The position numbers and the translations under genes are program-made. A DNA stretch of 64,000 bases from a virus (lineage: Duplodnaviria; Heunggongvirae; Uroviricota; Caudoviricetes): the IMG/VR virus record IMGVR_UViG_3300028895_001083, one strand, 5' to 3'. The notes under the pieces are model-generated. The model searched no databases. It was not told where the DNA came from and saw only the letters and a list, made by a program, of their open reading frames with translations. Shown here piece after piece: positions 10,341 through 19,683 of the stretch. How positions within the stretch are numbered: the first letter of the stretch is position 1; the number at the start of each line of letters is the position of its first letter.

Positions 10341-10634
10341 ATGGATGTAGAGACGTATTTGCGGGAGCATTCTGTACTTGACGGCCACGGCAATCTGGAC
10401 GGGGAGTTTGTGCCCCTACCGATAGCATGGTTAGCTGTGCAGATGCATTCCGAAGGTAAACTCGAACTCTTACCGCGGTCGTGGGTGCGGGACGATCACG
10501 TAGGCAGTCTCAGTGTCATAGCGGCTGGTGTGGATCCCAACCACCAGACCGACCACTGCGACCACTGCGGATATGTCTTCGCAGAGAAAGATGACGAGAT
10601 TATCCCGACATGCACACACACACTGAGCATGTGA
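10341..10634 (+). CDS. Hypothetical protein (C-terminal CDHCG motif)
   Basis: ORF with coding-like composition; no clear SD. Confidence 0.45.
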   Translation: MDVETYLREHSVLDGHGNLDGEFVPLPIAWLAVQMHSEGKLELLPRSWVRDDHVGSLSVIAAGVDPNHQTDHCDHCGYVFAEKDDEIIPTCTHTLSM

Positions 10635-10681: not shown

Positions 10682-12565
10682 TTACTCGAGCAGCTCGTCA
10701 TCCCACTCACCATCCGTAAGCGGCACCGATGCCCGCAGTTGTTCGTCGGTGATCGCGTAGGAGGCGAGCTCGTCGAGTCGTGGCCACCGCTTGGTGCGGT
10801 ACCACACCGCCACGCAGCCCAAATTGACAGCCTGGGCGAAGTCGTCAGTGAATCCTTCCTGCCGGGTGATCCGGTAGATCTCACCGGCGGCCATCGTGGT
10901 GATTTTGTCTTCGGTCAAGGCCAGAAAGTCCCGGATCAGGCCCGGATCCTCTTGGGAGTTGTAGTCCTTGTCGAAGAAACGGAGCTTCTGGCACTTGATC
11001 ATCGCACACGTCAGCAAGAGCGTTCGGCTCTTGTCGACACGGTAGTGGCTACGCGGATGCTGCATCGTAGGAGCAACGTGGTAGCAGGGCTGCTGGTTAG
11101 CGGAGCGGACGTACTGACAGGGCATCACTTTGCGAGTCGGAATGCCCGCTTGAATCAGGAACGTCTCCCGCAGAGAGCCGGCACCAGTGTAGTCGTGTGC
11201 GAGAATCTCGGGCTTGAAGATATCCCAGTAGTGTTTGACCTCTTTGGCTTCGCGCAGGTGGTCGTGGGGTGTAAGGAGCCGCTTGCCCCACAGTACGTCG
11301 ATCGAGCCATCGTGCTTCACACCAAGGAGAGCGATCGTCGTAAAGCTGATCTTCTTTTCACCGCCCCCTCCCCAGTCAACGCCCAGCACGCGAAATTTGT
11401 ATTGCCCGCAGCGACCACGGGCACGTGCAACTGTGTTGGGCCCGAGGTCAGACACCCGGTCAATTTCAGTCAGCGTAACGAGTTTGGCGGCCGTGTCGTA
11501 AGACTCGCCGAGAACCTCGTTCCAAAACACGTTCGCAGGCGTGTTGCCTTTGCCCGCCATCTTGGCGAGGAGTTCAGCCCACTTGTCAGGCTTGGCATAG
11601 TGCAAAGGCATGATCACCTGTGGAACATGGTATCCCGCCTGTAGCCATACCCGGTCGGGATGCCGGTGTACCCAGCGCCCCAGTCGGGGACTAATCGGCT
11701 TGCCGCAATGATAACAAATCGTCGCCGGGCACTTCTCGCTGATGTCGGTGTGATACTCGCCGATCATCTTCTCGAGATGGAACTCCATGGACGGTATGTT
11801 CCAGCGCGGCTTGCCGTTCTGGGTACAATGAAAACAGGGAATAAACCACTCGGCCTGGCTGGACTCGGTCCACAGGGCCTCTAGAGTGTTGTCCAACGTC
11901 TTCGGCGTGCCGGTGAACTGCCGGATCGCCCAGTCGGATGCCGACATCGTTTCGCGGATGATCGGGATATGTTCATGGTTCATATCCTGGACCTCGTCGA
12001 TGGCCACTTTGTCCGCGGAAATACCCCGGACACGGTCAGCGTTGAGGAATGCGAACGAAAAGAGCATTTTGGAGTCGTTACGGAAGGAGCGGTGCAGCAC
12101 GCTGTTCACGGTGGTCGTGTCCGACCACAAGAACTTCACCGGACTTTGGTCGATGAAGGGCTGGACGAACATCGTGCTGAAGCGCCGAACCTGCTCGAAC
12201 AGCGGCATCACGTAGAGTGTGCTGAAGTTCGGGATGGAGGTGGATGTGATTACCCCGTGGGCAGCGAGCGATGTGCTCTTGCTCACCTGCCGCCCCGTCT
12301 TGTAGACTATGGCGGACGGCATACGGAATCTGAAGATCTCTTCAAAGGGGAAGTGGTTCGCCAAGGTGTACGGCTTACCCTTGAGATTGAGGAGCAGCAT
12401 GAGCCCGTTGGCAAGTGAGTCCAACCGGCCCGACTGCAACAGCTGCGTGAAGAGCCTGACTCTTTCGTTAGCTGACAACTCCTCGATATTCTGGGGACTG
12501 AATGCGGCCCTCATCCGCATCTGCAGTCGTGCCAGTGCTTCAGGTTCTTGAAAGGGTACATCCAT
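10682..12565 (-). CDS. Terminase large subunit (GpA-like)
   Basis: 627 aa. Walker B-like AIDEVQD. Central CFHC...CYHCGKP zinc-finger pair and a C-terminal nuclease-sized domain match the lambda gpA-type terminase architecture. Confidence 0.8.
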   Translation of the reverse strand: MDVPFQEPEALARLQMRMRAAFSPQNIEELSANERVRLFTQLLQSGRLDSLANGLMLLLNLKGKPYTLANHFPFEEIFRFRMPSAIVYKTGRQVSKSTSLAAHGVITSTSIPNFSTLYVMPLFEQVRRFSTMFVQPFIDQSPVKFLWSDTTTVNSVLHRSFRNDSKMLFSFAFLNADRVRGISADKVAIDEVQDMNHEHIPIIRETMSASDWAIRQFTGTPKTLDNTLEALWTESSQAEWFIPCFHCTQNGKPRWNIPSMEFHLEKMIGEYHTDISEKCPATICYHCGKPISPRLGRWVHRHPDRVWLQAGYHVPQVIMPLHYAKPDKWAELLAKMAGKGNTPANVFWNEVLGESYDTAAKLVTLTEIDRVSDLGPNTVARARGRCGQYKFRVLGVDWGGGGEKKISFTTIALLGVKHDGSIDVLWGKRLLTPHDHLREAKEVKHYWDIFKPEILAHDYTGAGSLRETFLIQAGIPTRKVMPCQYVRSANQQPCYHVAPTMQHPRSHYRVDKSRTLLLTCAMIKCQKLRFFDKDYNSQEDPGLIRDFLALTEDKITTMAAGEIYRITRQEGFTDDFAQAVNLGCVAVWYRTKRWPRLDELASYAITDEQLRASVPLTDGEWDDELLE

Positions 12566-12982: not shown

Positions 12983-13192
12983 ATGGCATCTTGGATCTAC
13001 AGAGTAACCATGTTTGCAAGTTGGTTTCGCGTGGCCATATGGTTGATCGTGCTGGCCTTGCTTGGAGCCGTCATCTTCGACGGGCCTTTCAAGCTTGTAC
13101 CAGCCATCATTATTGGCTTCGTTCTTTACGGATTTTTCCATGTAGCAAGAGGCTTCGCAAGTGCGAAGGGCTGCGGAGAGTGGGAAGAATGA
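12983..13192 (+). CDS. Small two-TM membrane protein (holin-like size class)
   Basis: 69 aa with two hydrophobic helices. The stop overlaps the next start (ATGA). Confidence 0.45.
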   Translation: MASWIYRVTMFASWFRVAIWLIVLALLGAVIFDGPFKLVPAIIIGFVLYGFFHVARGFASAKGCGEWEE

Positions 13193-13584
13193 CTTTAATC
13201 GATCTTTTGGTGCTCGCTATGGCGGCACATACCCTCGTCAGCGTGTGGTTGCAAGACGGCGGGCTATTCGAAAGCTGGCGCGATTGGCTTCGTGCCTGGG
13301 CAACGCCCACGATGCGCCAGCACAGCTCGTACGAAATGCCCACCCGTTGGTCAATGGTTCGTATGAAGATCGCATACTTGGCAGAATGTCGTTTCTGCCT
13401 AACCTGCCAGGCCTGCTTTTGGCTTCTGGTACTCTTCTGGCTCCCCGGCTATTGGCTTCCAGCCATCTGGGGTGAAATCCTCTACGTGCCGGTGTACGCA
13501 CTGGCTGCTGCATGCATTGCTAGTGCCGCGACGTATCTGATGGATGCGCTCGAGGCGAAAGCAGAATCTTATTCACGAGAATAA
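13189..13584 (+). CDS. Integral membrane protein
   Basis: GGGAAG SD and multiple TM helices. The stop TAA lies inside palindrome site 2. Confidence 0.5.
   Translation: MTLIDLLVLAMAAHTLVSVWLQDGGLFESWRDWLRAWATPTMRQHSSYEMPTRWSMVRMKIAYLAECRFCLTCQACFWLLVLFWLPGYWLPAIWGEILYVPVYALAAACIASAATYLMDALEAKAESYSRE
13569..13584 (+). promoter_or_regulatory. Palindrome-family site 2 (TTATTCacgaGAATAA)
   Basis: Perfect TTATTC-N4-GAATAA ending 1 nt before the ATG of gene 13586. Confidence 0.55.
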
Positions 13585-13585
13585 T

Positions 13586-14008
13586 ATGTCCGAACGCAAA
13601 GTACCGTTCAATGAGCAGCTTCAGGCTGCTGTTGACGCATGCGAGGAGACTCTAAGGGACATTCCGGAGGTCGAAGGCGTGGCATTCACGTTTATCTACG
13701 CCGACGGCCTTACGGAGTCCGAGCCCTCGAACGTGCTTATCGGGCCTGACGACCCGATCTTTCTCGCTAAGGCTGGTAAGCAACTCACAAAGCTCCAGCG
13801 CACTGTGACCGCAGCGTTGCAGGAAAAGTTCACCGTGGCCGAGACCGTTCTATCGAACCTCAAGGCGCAAATTGACGAACACATCGCAAAAGCCAAAGAC
13901 CAGGAAGGGAACCAAGCGGAAGAAACCCCAGATCAAGGGGATAGCGACGCTGGACGACCTCCTGAAACACCTGCACATCCAGACGTGGGACACCCTGATA
14001 GTGGGTGA
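13586..14008 (+). CDS. Hypothetical protein
   Basis: ATG 1 nt after palindrome site 2, with no SD. GC3 is high until about 13880, then drops where the RNase H frame takes over. Confidence 0.5.
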   Translation: MSERKVPFNEQLQAAVDACEETLRDIPEVEGVAFTFIYADGLTESEPSNVLIGPDDPIFLAKAGKQLTKLQRTVTAALQEKFTVAETVLSNLKAQIDEHIAKAKDQEGNQAEETPDQGDSDAGRPPETPAHPDVGHPDSG

Positions 14009-14516
14009 CGGGTCTGGGACCGGGTGGAAACAAGGGGCCGGCTGGGCCTCCGTACTCATCGACCAGTCCTCAGGCGCCCGCAAACTCTTCTATGGCGCCA
14101 TGAACACTGGGACCGTCACTCTTGGCGAGATGTTCCCGTATCTGCATGCCCTATCGTGGTACGCCGGCCGAGACGGGCCAGGGCGTAACCGCCGACAAGA
14201 GGTCCAGCAACTGGGCCGTGACATGCAGGTGCACATCGTTACCGATTCCCAAACCGTCGCAACGTGCGGAAACAACCCCGCATCCCGGCGCTCGCATCGC
14301 GAGCTCTGGAAAGCGTTCGACGAGTACCGCAGCAACGGCTTTGCCTTGCAGTTCCACTTCGTTGCCCGGGACGTGATCAACTTGAACGTCCTGGTCGACG
14401 AGATTTCGCGTCAAGCACGCAAAGACATGGAGGAGACATACAGTACCGCCATGGAAACGCTGTGCAAACGATACCCAGGCCTCCCGGAGGATGCCACCAT
14501 CTATGACTTCAACTGA
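13872..14516 (+). CDS. RNase H-like ribonuclease with basic N-terminal extension
   Basis: LIVGDGSG, TDSQ and D..N..DLW-type spacing match the RNase HI fold. N-terminal tail KPKTRKGTKRKKPQIKG. Only a TTG is available as start. Confidence 0.7.
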   Translation: MTNTSQKPKTRKGTKRKKPQIKGIATLDDLLKHLHIQTWDTLIVGDGSGTGWKQGAGWASVLIDQSSGARKLFYGAMNTGTVTLGEMFPYLHALSWYAGRDGPGRNRRQEVQQLGRDMQVHIVTDSQTVATCGNNPASRRSHRELWKAFDEYRSNGFALQFHFVARDVINLNVLVDEISRQARKDMEETYSTAMETLCKRYPGLPEDATIYDFN

Positions 14517-14958
14517 TCCCACGCTGGCGACGTATCACAAAGACCTCTACGAGGACGATACGCCGCTTGCCATCATCAAGTTCTTCGAAGCCCAGCTCAA
14601 CCGGACGCCCGACAGCGACCGCGACTGGCACGAGAACGTCCGCTACCGTGTCCATTACGGTAACACCATCACAGGGCGTTGCTGGGGCGAGTACGACGAA
14701 GGCACTGTGGCACTCAACAACGAGGAGCCACAGGGCCTGATGATGCTCGCGACGCCGTCTACGAAGGAGGGGCCGCTGGTCCTGACTGGGTCGATCGTAC
14801 GGATCGATAAGCTTGCTGGCCGCTCGGTCGAGCAGGTGTACAGACATCCCACATATCACACCCACGAGGAGGAAGCGCGCGTTGCAAAAGCGGAAGTGCA
14901 GCCTGAACGGCGGCCGCGACGCATCGTGCTCAGAGGAAATGCCGACGGAGACACGTAG
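14503..14958 (+). CDS. Hypothetical protein
   Basis: ATG overlaps the RNase H 3' end by 14 nt. Confidence 0.5.
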   Translation: MTSTDPTLATYHKDLYEDDTPLAIIKFFEAQLNRTPDSDRDWHENVRYRVHYGNTITGRCWGEYDEGTVALNNEEPQGLMMLATPSTKEGPLVLTGSIVRIDKLAGRSVEQVYRHPTYHTHEEEARVAKAEVQPERRPRRIVLRGNADGDT

Positions 14959-16759
14959 TTTCAAGATGGACCAGAGTTTGCTGGTCAGCGTGATCAAGAA
15001 GCAGGCAGGCAGCCTGTGGAAAGCCGTTGTGGAAGGCGGGCAGAACGTCATCGACGCTGCCGCCCGCAAGTGCGAGATCGATTGCACGCCACAGATGGTG
15101 CAGATTCGCGATAACGGAAAGGGGTTCCGGTCCAAGGCGGACATTGAGAACTTCTTCGAAGTCTTCGGCAAACCGCACGAAGAAAGAGAGCAGAAAGTCT
15201 TTGGACAGTACCGCATGGGCCGCGGCCAGCTGTTCGCCTTCGGGCGTAACGTCTGGCGGTCCGGCGAGTTCGAGATGATCGTCGATATTGAGGAGAACGG
15301 CCTGGATTATGAGCTACGATCTGGCCTCGAGTATCACAACGGCTGCATCGTGACAGTGGAGCTTTATCGGCCGCTGTCGCATGTCCAGCACAACGAGATC
15401 CTCGACGAGATCAAGAAGAACATCAAGTTCGTCCAGATCCCGTTCCATCTGAATGGCGACGAGAAGCAGTTCAACAAGAAGCCCGACAAGATCGCCTGGG
15501 ACCTCTCGACGGCCGAGGCGGACTTCAAGTGGCGTGACAACGGGAACCTGGAGCTGTTCAACCAGGGCATCCGTGTCTGCTCTTACCCGCGCTACCGGTA
15601 CGGCACCGGCGGCGACATCGTGTCCAAAAAGCAGCTGGACGTGAACTTCGCCCGAAACGACGTCATGGACAGCTGTGAGACGTGGCAGGCGATCAGAAAG
15701 ACCGTGCGCGACCACGTCAACGCACGGACGTTGGCCCAGCAAGAAACGGCCGGCCGGCAACGGAATACCCCGACGCGCACACGTGCCCGGGCAACCAATC
15801 GGCGGCGTCCGACGCTGACCGAGCAGGACCGCTGCCGCGTCGTGCGCGAGATGAAAGACGGGTCGTTGAACAAGCGCCAGATGAAGGCCGCCAAGGTCTT
15901 CACGATGTGGCGTAAGGAAACGCACTCGACGATCTCCGCCGTATACAAGATCGCCAAGGGGAACGTCACGTTCCTCCCAGACGAGACACCGGCGTACTCG
16001 AGCCTACCCAAATCGCTGGCGGATCACCGCCTGGCGGTCGTGCTCGATCCCGTCATGTTCAACCGCTGGGGATGGAAACCGGAGTTCCCGGAAAAGCTAG
16101 TCGAGAACATCAACGCCACGTTCGACGAGCAGTTCGGCAAGTACGCAAACGACGTCCGGCTGAAGTACGTCGATGCGGACAAGATCGTGAAGACGATGCA
16201 AGGATCGAACACGGTCATCGACGCGAACAAGATGACACGCCTCGAACGCATCGCCACGGCGACTATGAGCGCCAATATCAGCAACATCCACTGGGCAGCC
16301 TGCCGTGTCAATGTCCAGCAGAACCGCAACGCGCAGCGGCGCATTGTGGTCGGCATCGGTCCGTTCGATTCGTGGACCGACGGCCGTACGTTCATTGCGA
16401 TCAACCGCCGGGTGATTGCTGCTGTCAAGGTCGGGCCTTCCAGCTGGTGGCGCTACGCTACGCTGCTCCTGCACGAGTATCTGCACACAGATGCGACGCA
16501 GGACGCGCATATGCACAAGAAGGACTTCTACGAGGCGTACCACAATCTCGTGCAACAGCACTTCATGGGCGTCTTCTGCTGGAACTGCATGATGCGGCTG
16601 CCCGCCAATGCGCGCAGCGTGCGTCGTCGCCTGACCAGCAAGGAGTTGGCGACTGTCGATGCGGCCGAAGAGCAGCAAATCTACGCACAGAACTGGGACG
16701 ACCTGGGTGTCATGTCACACCCGGATTTGGCGCCCACTTCGCGAGAGGCAGAGGAATGA
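14939..16759 (+). CDS. GHKL-family ATPase (MutL/MORC-like Bergerat fold) with C-terminal HExxH-containing domain
   Basis: N-box EGGQNVIDAA, G1-box IRDNGKGF and G2-box FGQYRMGRGQLFAFG. A basic linker is followed by a HEYLH motif in the C-terminal third. Confidence 0.7.
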   Translation: MPTETRSFKMDQSLLVSVIKKQAGSLWKAVVEGGQNVIDAAARKCEIDCTPQMVQIRDNGKGFRSKADIENFFEVFGKPHEEREQKVFGQYRMGRGQLFAFGRNVWRSGEFEMIVDIEENGLDYELRSGLEYHNGCIVTVELYRPLSHVQHNEILDEIKKNIKFVQIPFHLNGDEKQFNKKPDKIAWDLSTAEADFKWRDNGNLELFNQGIRVCSYPRYRYGTGGDIVSKKQLDVNFARNDVMDSCETWQAIRKTVRDHVNARTLAQQETAGRQRNTPTRTRARATNRRRPTLTEQDRCRVVREMKDGSLNKRQMKAAKVFTMWRKETHSTISAVYKIAKGNVTFLPDETPAYSSLPKSLADHRLAVVLDPVMFNRWGWKPEFPEKLVENINATFDEQFGKYANDVRLKYVDADKIVKTMQGSNTVIDANKMTRLERIATATMSANISNIHWAACRVNVQQNRNAQRRIVVGIGPFDSWTDGRTFIAINRRVIAAVKVGPSSWWRYATLLLHEYLHTDATQDAHMHKKDFYEAYHNLVQQHFMGVFCWNCMMRLPANARSVRRRLTSKELATVDAAEEQQIYAQNWDDLGVMSHPDLAPTSREAEE

Positions 16760-17559: not shown

Positions 17560-19683
17560 ATGAACAAGAAAGCGGCTGCCGCCAGAATCGCTGAACTGTC
17601 AGCGGACGTGGATCGGCACAACATGTTGTACTATTGCTATGGTGAACCAGCGATCCCGGATAGGGTGTTCGACGAGCTCCTCAAGGAACTGGTTGCACTA
17701 GAGCAGGAATTCCCGGATCTGGCGCTGCCAGATAGCCCGACCCAACGTGTGGGCGGCGCTCCTGTTGAGGGCCTCGAGTCCATGGAGCACCCGTCGCTCA
17801 TGTTTTCTATCGACAACTGCTTCGACCTCGATGAGGTCAAGAAGTTTCATCAGCGTGTGGTGAAGAAGCTCGGCCACGAGCCGCTCTGGACGCCCGAATG
17901 GAAGATTGACGGTTGCGCTGTCAATCTGATCTATGAGGACGGCGTACTCACCCATGCCATAACCCGCGGCGACGGTGCAGTCGGCGACGACATCACGCAC
18001 GCTGCCAAGGCAATGCGCGGCGTCCCTCTCAAGCTGGACCGTCTCTACGACGAGGAAGGCAATGTGATGGGGAATCCCAAGCCGTTGCCGAAGCTCTTGG
18101 AGATCCGTGGCGAAGCGTTCATCACGCACGATGACTTCACGCAGGTCAACTGTGCGCGCAACAACGCTGGTGAGGAGACGTTCGCCAACTCCCGCAACGC
18201 CACGTCCGGCGCTATCCGTAGCGTCGATCCGGCCGACTGTCACGAGCGGCGTGTACGTTTTATGGCGCACGGCATCGGCAAGTGTGAGTACGAAGGCGAC
18301 GTCGATATCGAGTCGTACTTCGAGACGCTGTTTGCCTTTCATCTTTGCGGGATGCCGATCACAGATCACTATGGCCTGCCCGCCCCGATGGATAAGGCGC
18401 TGAAGACCGTCGCAGAGATGGTTGCCATGCTGCCAGAACTGAGCATTCCGGTCGACGGGATCGTCCTGAAGCTGGACAAGTTCAGCGATCGTGAAGCCAT
18501 GGGCCAAGAGTCCAAGAAGCACGTGAGCTGGGCGCTGGCCTACAAGTGGGAGAAGTACGAGGCCGTAACCGAGGTCGAGCGCTTCGACGTACAGGTAGGC
18601 AAGCAGGGCACGCTGACGCCGGTGGTTTACTGCAAACCGGTGGAGATCGCTGAGACGATGGTCGGCAAGGCGTCGCTGCACAACTGGCACGAAGTCTTGC
18701 GCCTGGGCATCGCCCACGGTGACTCGATCGTCATGGAAAAGGCCGGCAAGATCATTCCGCACGTCGTACGTGTGGTCAAGGAGAAGCGCACCGGACCGGT
18801 CGCGCCGTTCCTGCCGCCCGCTACCTGCCCGTCCTGCGGCAGCGACGCCATCGAGGATGGTCCGTTCCTGCGCTGCTCAGGTGATTCGTGCCCCGCACAG
18901 ATCGCCGCCCTGCTCCGATCGGCCGCTGACCGGTCCCGCCTAGATATAGATGGTTTGGGGGAGACCCTAGCCACCCAATTGGCGGAGGCAGAGCTGGTTG
19001 AGGACCTCTCGGACCTCTTCACGCTTGAGCATCGCAGAGACAGCGTTCTGAGGCTTGCACGCATGGGCGAGAAGAAAGCCGACAAGCTCTTCGAAGCCCT
19101 CGCAACGGCGCGTGAGCGGCCTTCCTGGCGATTATTGGCGTCTTTGAACATCAAGCACGTCGGAAGGACCATGTCGGAGGCCATCTGCAAGGCTGCTAGC
19201 GCTGCTGGCGCCGAGCTGAAGGAACCCGCCGACCCCTTCCAAGTGATGGTGTCCTTGTGGTCGATCGACGACTATACCCAGATTGAGGGGGTTGGCGAAG
19301 CCGCCGCTCGATCGATCTGGACGTGGATGCACAGCGAGAAAAACCTGAAGCTGCTGAAGCGCCTCCGGGACTACGGCGTCAACATGGGCGTCAACGACCC
19401 GGTGCCCGAAGTAGACGACGGATCTCCGAAGCCGCTCGCCGGTATGAAGATCTGTGCGACCGGGAAACTGGTCGGGTACTCTCGCGAAAGCATCAAGGAG
19501 ACGATCGTGCAACACGGCGGTACAGTCGCCAGCGCGGTCTCGGCGAAGACCGACATGCTCGTCGCCGGCGAAAAAGCCGGCAGCAAACTGAAGAAGGCCC
19601 AGGACCTGGGCGTTCGTGTCGTCAACGAAGCGGAGTTCAATGACCTCATATCGGTCGAGCAGCAAGAATCCGCCAGTAAGTAA
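17560..19683 (+). CDS. ligA: NAD-dependent DNA ligase
   Basis: AGGAGG SD. KIDG adenylation lysine motif (EWKIDGCAV), Zn finger CPSCGS...C..C, HhH region and a C-terminal BRCT-like domain. The N-terminus aligns with the LigA Ia domain (YYxxxxPxIxDxEYD). Confidence 0.9.
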   Translation: MNKKAAAARIAELSADVDRHNMLYYCYGEPAIPDRVFDELLKELVALEQEFPDLALPDSPTQRVGGAPVEGLESMEHPSLMFSIDNCFDLDEVKKFHQRVVKKLGHEPLWTPEWKIDGCAVNLIYEDGVLTHAITRGDGAVGDDITHAAKAMRGVPLKLDRLYDEEGNVMGNPKPLPKLLEIRGEAFITHDDFTQVNCARNNAGEETFANSRNATSGAIRSVDPADCHERRVRFMAHGIGKCEYEGDVDIESYFETLFAFHLCGMPITDHYGLPAPMDKALKTVAEMVAMLPELSIPVDGIVLKLDKFSDREAMGQESKKHVSWALAYKWEKYEAVTEVERFDVQVGKQGTLTPVVYCKPVEIAETMVGKASLHNWHEVLRLGIAHGDSIVMEKAGKIIPHVVRVVKEKRTGPVAPFLPPATCPSCGSDAIEDGPFLRCSGDSCPAQIAALLRSAADRSRLDIDGLGETLATQLAEAELVEDLSDLFTLEHRRDSVLRLARMGEKKADKLFEALATARERPSWRLLASLNIKHVGRTMSEAICKAASAAGAELKEPADPFQVMVSLWSIDDYTQIEGVGEAAARSIWTWMHSEKNLKLLKRLRDYGVNMGVNDPVPEVDDGSPKPLAGMKICATGKLVGYSRESIKETIVQHGGTVASAVSAKTDMLVAGEKAGSKLKKAQDLGVRVVNEAEFNDLISVEQQESASK

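Follow-up and report, generated by a model that had tools for sequence, protein, structure and literature searches.

A predicted RNase HI gene of a phage probably starts at a weak TTG codon inside the gene upstream

Our analysis addressed the question of how an RNase H-like gene of a Caudoviricetes phage (IMG/VR record IMGVR_UViG_3300028895_001083) is translated, given that its open reading frame (ORF B) lacks a canonical start codon and is phased +1 to the ORF directly upstream (ORF A). The stretch of DNA analysed, hereafter the window, comprises 64,000 nt. The initial annotation had left two options, namely a pair of overlapping genes or a +1 frameshift, programmed or caused by a sequencing indel, that fuses an N-terminal domain to RNase H. 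The first of these stood, since the start position of ORF B is shared with its relatives, and the fusion was not supported, since neither fused nor same-frame relatives were found. Comparison of the related loci makes it very probable that A and B belong to one packed phage operon and are translated separately, with no frameshift involved and with B starting from TTG 13872. The locus is thus best described as an ordinary case of two overlapping genes, the second with a weak start, and no new mechanism is indicated.

Table 1. Positions in the window of the genes, signals and residues discussed in the text.
Feature	Position	Strand	Remarks
Second TTG-start gene	9741-10337		Gene call; AAAGGAAG precedes the start
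GpA-type large terminase	10682-12565	-	Gene context
Upstream gene	13039-13584	+	181 aa in public calls; TAA ends 1 nt before the ATG of ORF A
ORF A	13586-14008	+	ATG 13586 to TGA 14006-14008; 140 aa
AAGG, weak Shine-Dalgarno-like site for B	13862-13865	+	6 nt 5' of the TTG, inside the A coding sequence
TTG, inferred start of B	13872-13874	+	Sole usable in-frame start; 132 nt before GDGS
ORF B (RNase H-like)	13872-14516	+	TTG 13872 to TGA 14514-14516; 214 aa
A/B overlap	13872-14008	+	137 nt, co-directional; B residues 1-46, A residues 96-140 and the A stop
Basic disordered N-terminal tail of B, residues 1-23	13872-13940	+	Lys/Arg-rich; mean pLDDT 46 (residues 1-10) and 57 (residues 11-20)
Asp46 of GDGSG, first catalytic carboxylate	14007-14009	+	Invariant; aligns with E. 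coli D10; overlaps the A stop TGA 14006-14008
Glu86, second catalytic carboxylate	14127-14129	+	Invariant; aligns with E. coli E48
Asp125 of TDSQ, third catalytic carboxylate	14244-14246	+	Invariant; E. coli D70 by the shared TDSQ motif
Asp176 of VDEISRQA, fourth catalytic carboxylate	14397-14399	+	Nearly invariant; aligns with E. coli D134 in CDELARAA
Downstream gene	14503-14958	+	151 aa; ATG overlaps the end of B by 14 nt; matches phrog_17487 (no known function)

The limits of ORF A and the +1 phase were as initially annotated, and the overlap, estimated there at about 137 nt, is exactly of that length. The starts of A and B lie 286 nt apart, which places B in the +1 frame relative to A, and frame B is open after a TGA codon at 13806-13808, directly before position 13809 from which it had been reported to be open. 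A sliding GC3 profile likewise reproduced the reported switch from frame A to frame B, here placed at about 13850-13880. GC3 in frame A was 0.67-0.80 up to about 13850, and between about 13880 and 14030 it was down to 0.30-0.40 with frame B up to 0.77-0.87; along the whole B gene the GC3 of frame B was 0.63-0.90. The flanking junctions are a TAA-n-ATG at 13582-13588 on the upstream side and a 14-nt overlap at 14503-14516 on the downstream side. The window is a phage-like region with a GC content of about 58%, and a blastn search of 13000-15500 against 50,697 GenBank phage records gave no match and thus no close relative in that set. An alternative genetic code was considered and rejected, since B and its homologs end at the same place, B with a TGA, and the upstream gene is closed by a TAA.

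The RNase HI motifs that had been recognised in frame B are present, with VGDGSG from 14001 and TDSQ at 14241-14252. The AF2 model of B (pLDDT 88.9, pTM 0.82) shows the mixed five-stranded beta-sheet with flanking helices of the RNase H fold, and a Foldseek comparison against the PDB returned RNase H1/HI chains for 50 of the 50 matches listed, engineered, chimeric and ancestral ones included. The best match was Chlorobium tepidum RNase H1 (3h08, E=7e-9), followed by the enzymes of E. coli, Thermus and M. tuberculosis, and matches to RNase HI ranged from E=7e-9 to about 1e-6 with target-normalised TM-scores of 0.62-0.77 over approximately 146-164 aligned columns. B carries counterparts of all four catalytic carboxylates of the E. 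coli enzyme (Table 1), where the equivalence of Asp125 and D70 rests on the motif and HMMER did not align the two TDSQ opposite each other. Invariance was scored over an alignment of 33 homologs, and all 22 family-invariant residues, the catalytic ones included, are present in the B protein of the window.

The search of the protein database yielded 49 homologs of B; of the full-length ones, most measure about 190-220 aa and extend over the basic N-terminal tail. Most B homologs have a tail of similar length that is rich in Lys/Arg but shows no sequence conservation. The basic stretch KPKTRKGTKRKKPQIKG (B residues 7-23), which had been read as a possible linker joining two fused domains, belongs to an ordinary disordered N-terminal tail that follows B's own start in nearly all homologs. 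Curated models describe the family poorly: B, A and their neighbours gave no usable match to Pfam, B of the window gave none at E<=1 and so matches neither PF00075 (RNase_H) nor PF13456, and PF00075 was matched by 3 of the 33 family members, at best with E=0.032. The profile of the B family found E. coli RNase HI in the PDB at E=0.49, and phrog_531 ('Rnase H') matches B at E=1.2e-3. Compared with RNase HI (E. coli RnhA, 3h08), B has the same predicted fold, equivalents of D10, E48, D70 and D134 and an identical TDSQ motif, but its identity to these enzymes is only 16-22%, it lacks a Pfam PF00075 match, and it has three additions, namely a disordered basic tail of about 22 aa at the N-terminus, a conserved helix that precedes strand beta-1, and about 40 aa of helical extension at the C-terminus. 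Judged by its modelled fold and aligned residues, B is a type 1 RNase H of predicted activity from a divergent clade in phages, which at the sequence level falls outside the Pfam RNase_H model.

In frame B, only two ATG, GTG or TTG codons are located 5' of GDGS, namely TTG 13872 and GTG 14001. The latter lies 3 nt before the motif and starting there would remove strand beta-1, which makes it unusable and leaves TTG 13872 as the only start, in agreement with the initial annotation. The accompanying statement that no Shine-Dalgarno (SD) site is present was too strong, as an AAGG is found 6 nt before the TTG. Start codons among the 27 called genes of the phage are 24 ATG, 1 GTG and 2 TTG (B included), and other genes of the phage carry AGGAG-type SD sites. 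With a second called gene starting at TTG (Table 1), the RNase H gene is not alone in this mode of initiation.

For comparison, 23 viral and 74 metagenomic loci of B homologs were retrieved. A long upstream ORF in the frame of A is present at 43 distinct loci, counting the window. The candidate in-frame start of B is an ATG in 35 of them, situated 99-160 nt (mostly 108-156 nt) 5' of GDGS, a GTG in five and a TTG in three, including the window; the ATG counts partly reflect a rule preferring ATG within 99-160 nt of GDGS, and the compared loci are phylogenetically related, so that the counts are not independent events. An SD-like motif, defined as a tetramer 5-16 nt 5' of the chosen start, precedes that start in 26 of 50 loci compared with 10.5% of 12-mers drawn at random from those loci. 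The AAGGA, CAGGA or GAGGA that relatives carry before their ATG is located at the same position as the AAGG of the window. Written in the frame of A, the junction reads '...aag gaa tgt AAT GAC...' in L004 and '...cag ggg aca CAT GAC...' in L045 (both with an ATG start), '...gcg aga caa AGT GAC...' in L006 (GTG start) and '...aag gcg caa ATT GAC...' in the window (TTG start). This alignment puts the TTG of the window at the position of the ATG or GTG of its relatives and its AAGG at that of their AAGGA or CAGGA.

The comparison points to TTG 13872 as the start codon actually used for B. Ribosomes translating A would then pass the ribosome-binding site (RBS) and start codon of B and go on for 45 codons to a chance stop, TGA 14006-14008, a run-on that would add an unconserved, disordered tail to A. 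Initiation of B would occur independently at TTG 13872, aided by the weak AAGG 6 nt upstream, and would yield the 214-aa RNase H. The layout would be ancestral to the phage family, in which most relatives have an ATG with a stronger AAGGA or GGAG, and the lineage of the window, with TTG and AAGG, would be a weakened version of it. A TTG with a 4-nt SD makes a weak signal for initiation and is moreover located in an ORF under active translation, which counts against a reading with independent starts; B is probably made at a low level.

The same weakness could mean that the start of B has decayed, ATG having become TTG and AAGGA having become AAGGCG, to a degree at which B is barely or not translated and is a pseudogene on the way. 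Most relatives do have an ATG and a stronger SD, and the start in the window lies inside a translated ORF, as decay would have it. We nevertheless regard this as unlikely, because the ORF of 214 codons is intact with all 22 family-invariant residues, those of catalysis among them, because frame B keeps a GC3 of 0.63-0.90 throughout the gene, because the identical sequence persists in several samples, and because TTG is a legitimate bacterial start that is used by at least one other called gene of the phage.

ORF A encodes a conserved core of about 97 aa (residues 1-97; 13586-13876), composed of a helix, a beta-hairpin and a long helix, and an unconserved tail. Its AF2 model has a pLDDT of 75, with residues 109-140 predicted to be disordered. 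Homologs of the core, found among P0052-P0061, are small proteins, and a phmmer search of 1.84 billion representative proteins, with the A core as query, gave standalone homologs of 111-141 aa; a word-index search with A had returned only A itself, and the homologs came from phmmer. Four long phmmer matches (P0051, P0054, P0056 and P0060; 638-3960 aa) were rejected as fusions, being multi-repeat proteins that match over short stretches and show no similarity to B. The fold of A has no significant match in the PDB (best E=0.98), and A gave no usable match in Pfam and no functional match in PHROG. A weak Pfam match to 'tail assembly chaperone' (E=0.15) was considered as noise and was given no weight as a sign of a G/GT-like frameshift. 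With an HMM built on the A core, 43 distinct loci were seen to carry an A homolog immediately before B. This constant position of the A core family directly upstream of an RNase HI-like gene suggests a functional partnership between A and B.

Anchoring the 43 loci by the HMM gave 42 with B at +1 relative to A, one in the other non-B frame and none with both in the same frame. The A core ends at the start codon of B, and the +1 phase is conserved because the core abuts this start and a non-triplet indel would break one of the two genes. In all 43 loci the stop of A lies 22-152 nt past the candidate B start nearest to the end of the A core. The tails that result in the relatives are 1-49 aa long, of low complexity, not alignable and unconserved, and even between the close relatives L024 and L089 they measure 12 and 34 aa, respectively. 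The stops of A are often located 20 or 23 nt before GDGS, where a conserved Asp/Glu codon of B following a codon that ends in T creates a TGA in the frame of A, and the end of A is thus dictated by the sequence of B.

Permutation of the synonymous codons of B in the window left the frame of A open at least as far as observed in 33% of trials (P=0.33), and across 37 loci none reached P<0.05, with a mean P of 0.415; the overlaps tend to be slightly longer than the null, by about 1.8 SE if the loci were independent, a tendency behind which a weak selective reason for the read-through may lie. Between related pairs, the differences at B codon positions 1/2/3 were 0.31/0.22/0.43 in the overlap versus 0.16/0.10/0.44 in the rest of B. 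The overlap is therefore the fastest-evolving part of the locus and shows the periodicity of frame B only. The synonymous site of A, which is position 2 of B, is the slowest within the overlap, whereas purifying selection on A would produce the reverse, and purifying selection on both frames was not seen there. The permutation null, the substitution pattern and the predicted disorder together lead to the conclusion that the tail of A is unconstrained. The length of the overlap is what chance gives, and there is no dual-coding selection.

Palleja et al. found no genuine co-directional overlap of more than 60 bp in 338 cellular genomes, the longest real one being 56 bp (2008; PMC2478687). The pair A/B resembles co-directional pairs such as ATGA-type junctions and holD/rimI in that the RBS and start of the downstream gene lie inside the upstream gene of a tight operon, but it differs from those of cellular genomes in length, with 137 nt here and 22-152 nt in the family versus at most 60 bp. 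It fits the 3'-extension category of Palleja et al. (PMC2478687) in spirit, without a dual-coding constraint. The additional length is attributed to an unconstrained run-on of the upstream gene, not to dual-coding selection. A long co-directional overlap can accordingly arise and persist as unconstrained run-on from upstream.

It is also conceivable that the reading of A past the start of B is maintained on purpose, such that translation of the tail sets the output of RNase H or of a +1 fusion made at a low level, and we judge this improbable. Translation of the A tail might occlude the RBS of B or unfold a local mRNA structure, and nuclease dosage would in that case be tied to a conserved partner protein. 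In favour of such a role, all 43 loci with a recognisable A have overlaps, of 22-152 nt, that extend beyond the cellular ceiling of about 60 bp, and these are slightly longer than the permutation null (mean P 0.415).

Under a programmed +1 frameshift within 13809-14008, the A core would be fused to RNase H, instead of or alongside independent initiation of B. Frameshift fusions of this general kind are known, +1 from prfB and some phage structural genes and -1 from the G/GT tail chaperone, dnaX and IS3 OrfAB. A and B are like them in comprising two out-of-frame ORFs of which the downstream one encodes a catalytic RNase H-fold domain, and they superficially resemble IS3 OrfA/OrfB. The +1 relation in 42 of 43 loci, the reading of A past the start of B in all of them and the weak start of B in the window (TTG with AAGG) would suit a shift, and the sequence offers two places for it. 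GCA AAA GCC in the frame of A (13886-13894) would let tRNA-Lys re-pair at +1, and GGG TGA C at the stop of A (14003-14009) is similar to a stop-stimulated +1 site of the prfB type.

Several observations make a programmed shift distinctly unlikely all the same. The +1 phase follows automatically from the A core ending at the start of B. The downstream ORF has initiation signals of its own, with an ATG in 35 of 43 loci, an SD-like motif in 26 of 50 loci, that is in about half, and TTG with AAGG in the window. In L042, L048 and L049 a stop in frame B directly precedes the ATG and the stop of A follows 22-38 nt on, which leaves almost no room for a shift. The overlap, fastest-evolving as it is, holds no conserved sequence: the tails and stops of A vary in sequence and position, so that no conserved shift site is seen, and the slippery candidates of the window, AAA G (13889-13892) and GGG TGA C (14003-14009), are absent from the relatives. 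A shift at GGG TGA would moreover swap the conserved helix and strand beta-1 of B (residues 24-45) for the tail of A. Rfam found nothing at E<=1 in 13300-14800.

Single-ORF relatives, as a fusion might have left behind, were not encountered. The phmmer matches of the A core among 1.84 billion representative proteins included no A-RNase H fusion, no B homolog among the 49 from the protein database exceeds 233 aa, and A and B share one frame in 0 of 43 loci. Unlike the known frameshift fusions, A/B thus have a conserved downstream start and neither a conserved shift site nor fused homologs. They differ from IS3 OrfAB in their phase, which is +1 and not -1, and in B being of the RNase HI type and not a DDE transposase. 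An IS3-like frameshifted transposase was rejected on its phase, the match of B to RNase HI and the location in an operon of replication genes.

A sequencing or assembly indel near 13870-13900 that splits a single gene in two would also make the GC3 switch coincide with the change of frame, but it has next to no probability given that three contigs from other samples and different assembly pipelines are identical over 13000-15000, that the exact B protein is recorded from 7 contigs and the exact A protein (P0050, 140 aa) from 10, that no homopolymer in 13860-13900 is longer than 4 nt, and that the two-frame layout is common to all 42 related loci. The three contigs (ENA ERZ27256770, 220 kb; Logan SRR14699969, 108 kb; Logan SRR6963492) have 0 mismatches to window 13000-15000. 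They are independent assemblies, and the sequence of the window is correct in this region.

For annotation, we favour a start of the RNase H gene at TTG 13872, no flag for a frameshift or a pseudogene, and retention of both genes. ORF A is a genuine gene and has counterparts in related phages. Public gene calls on the three contigs (L098-L100) include B with a TTG start and 214 aa and omit ORF A. The gap in the calls at ORF A spans 9714-10000 in L098, 9714-10000 in L099 and 993-1279 in L100, corresponding to window 13585-13871. Prodigal has a same-strand overlap limit of 60 bp (PMC2848648), and the omission of A is probably a result of the 137-nt overlap exceeding the limit of Prodigal-type callers, if such a caller made these calls.

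The terminase gene is followed by tightly packed plus-strand genes, an NAD-dependent DNA ligase among them. Downstream of B, positions 14966-16759 encode a protein of 597 aa with a weak match to HATPase_c_3. The full-length NAD-dependent DNA ligase (17560-19683, 707 aa), with adenylation, OB and BRCT domains, is located about 3 kb downstream of B. The ATPase-like and ligase neighbours place B in a replication and repair module, in which B would presumably remove RNA from RNA/DNA hybrids during phage replication. Contigs that carry the phage reach 220 kb.

Elsewhere in the window, a short repeat differs between copies of the same phage. Positions 10613-10623 read (CA)5C in the window and (CA)4C in the contigs L098 (6743-6751) and L099, which come from two other samples. 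Owing to the additional CA, a small Cys-rich ORF (10341-10634) changes frame, and the difference may reflect a strain variant, repeat slippage or an assembly error. The copy in the window ends early, with 97 aa and the terminus ...PTCTHTLSM*. In L098 the copy extends to 112 aa, with the terminus ...PTCTHTEHVTLCRTCYNKAGTNVR*, and retains a second CxxC pair of the kind seen in zinc ribbons.
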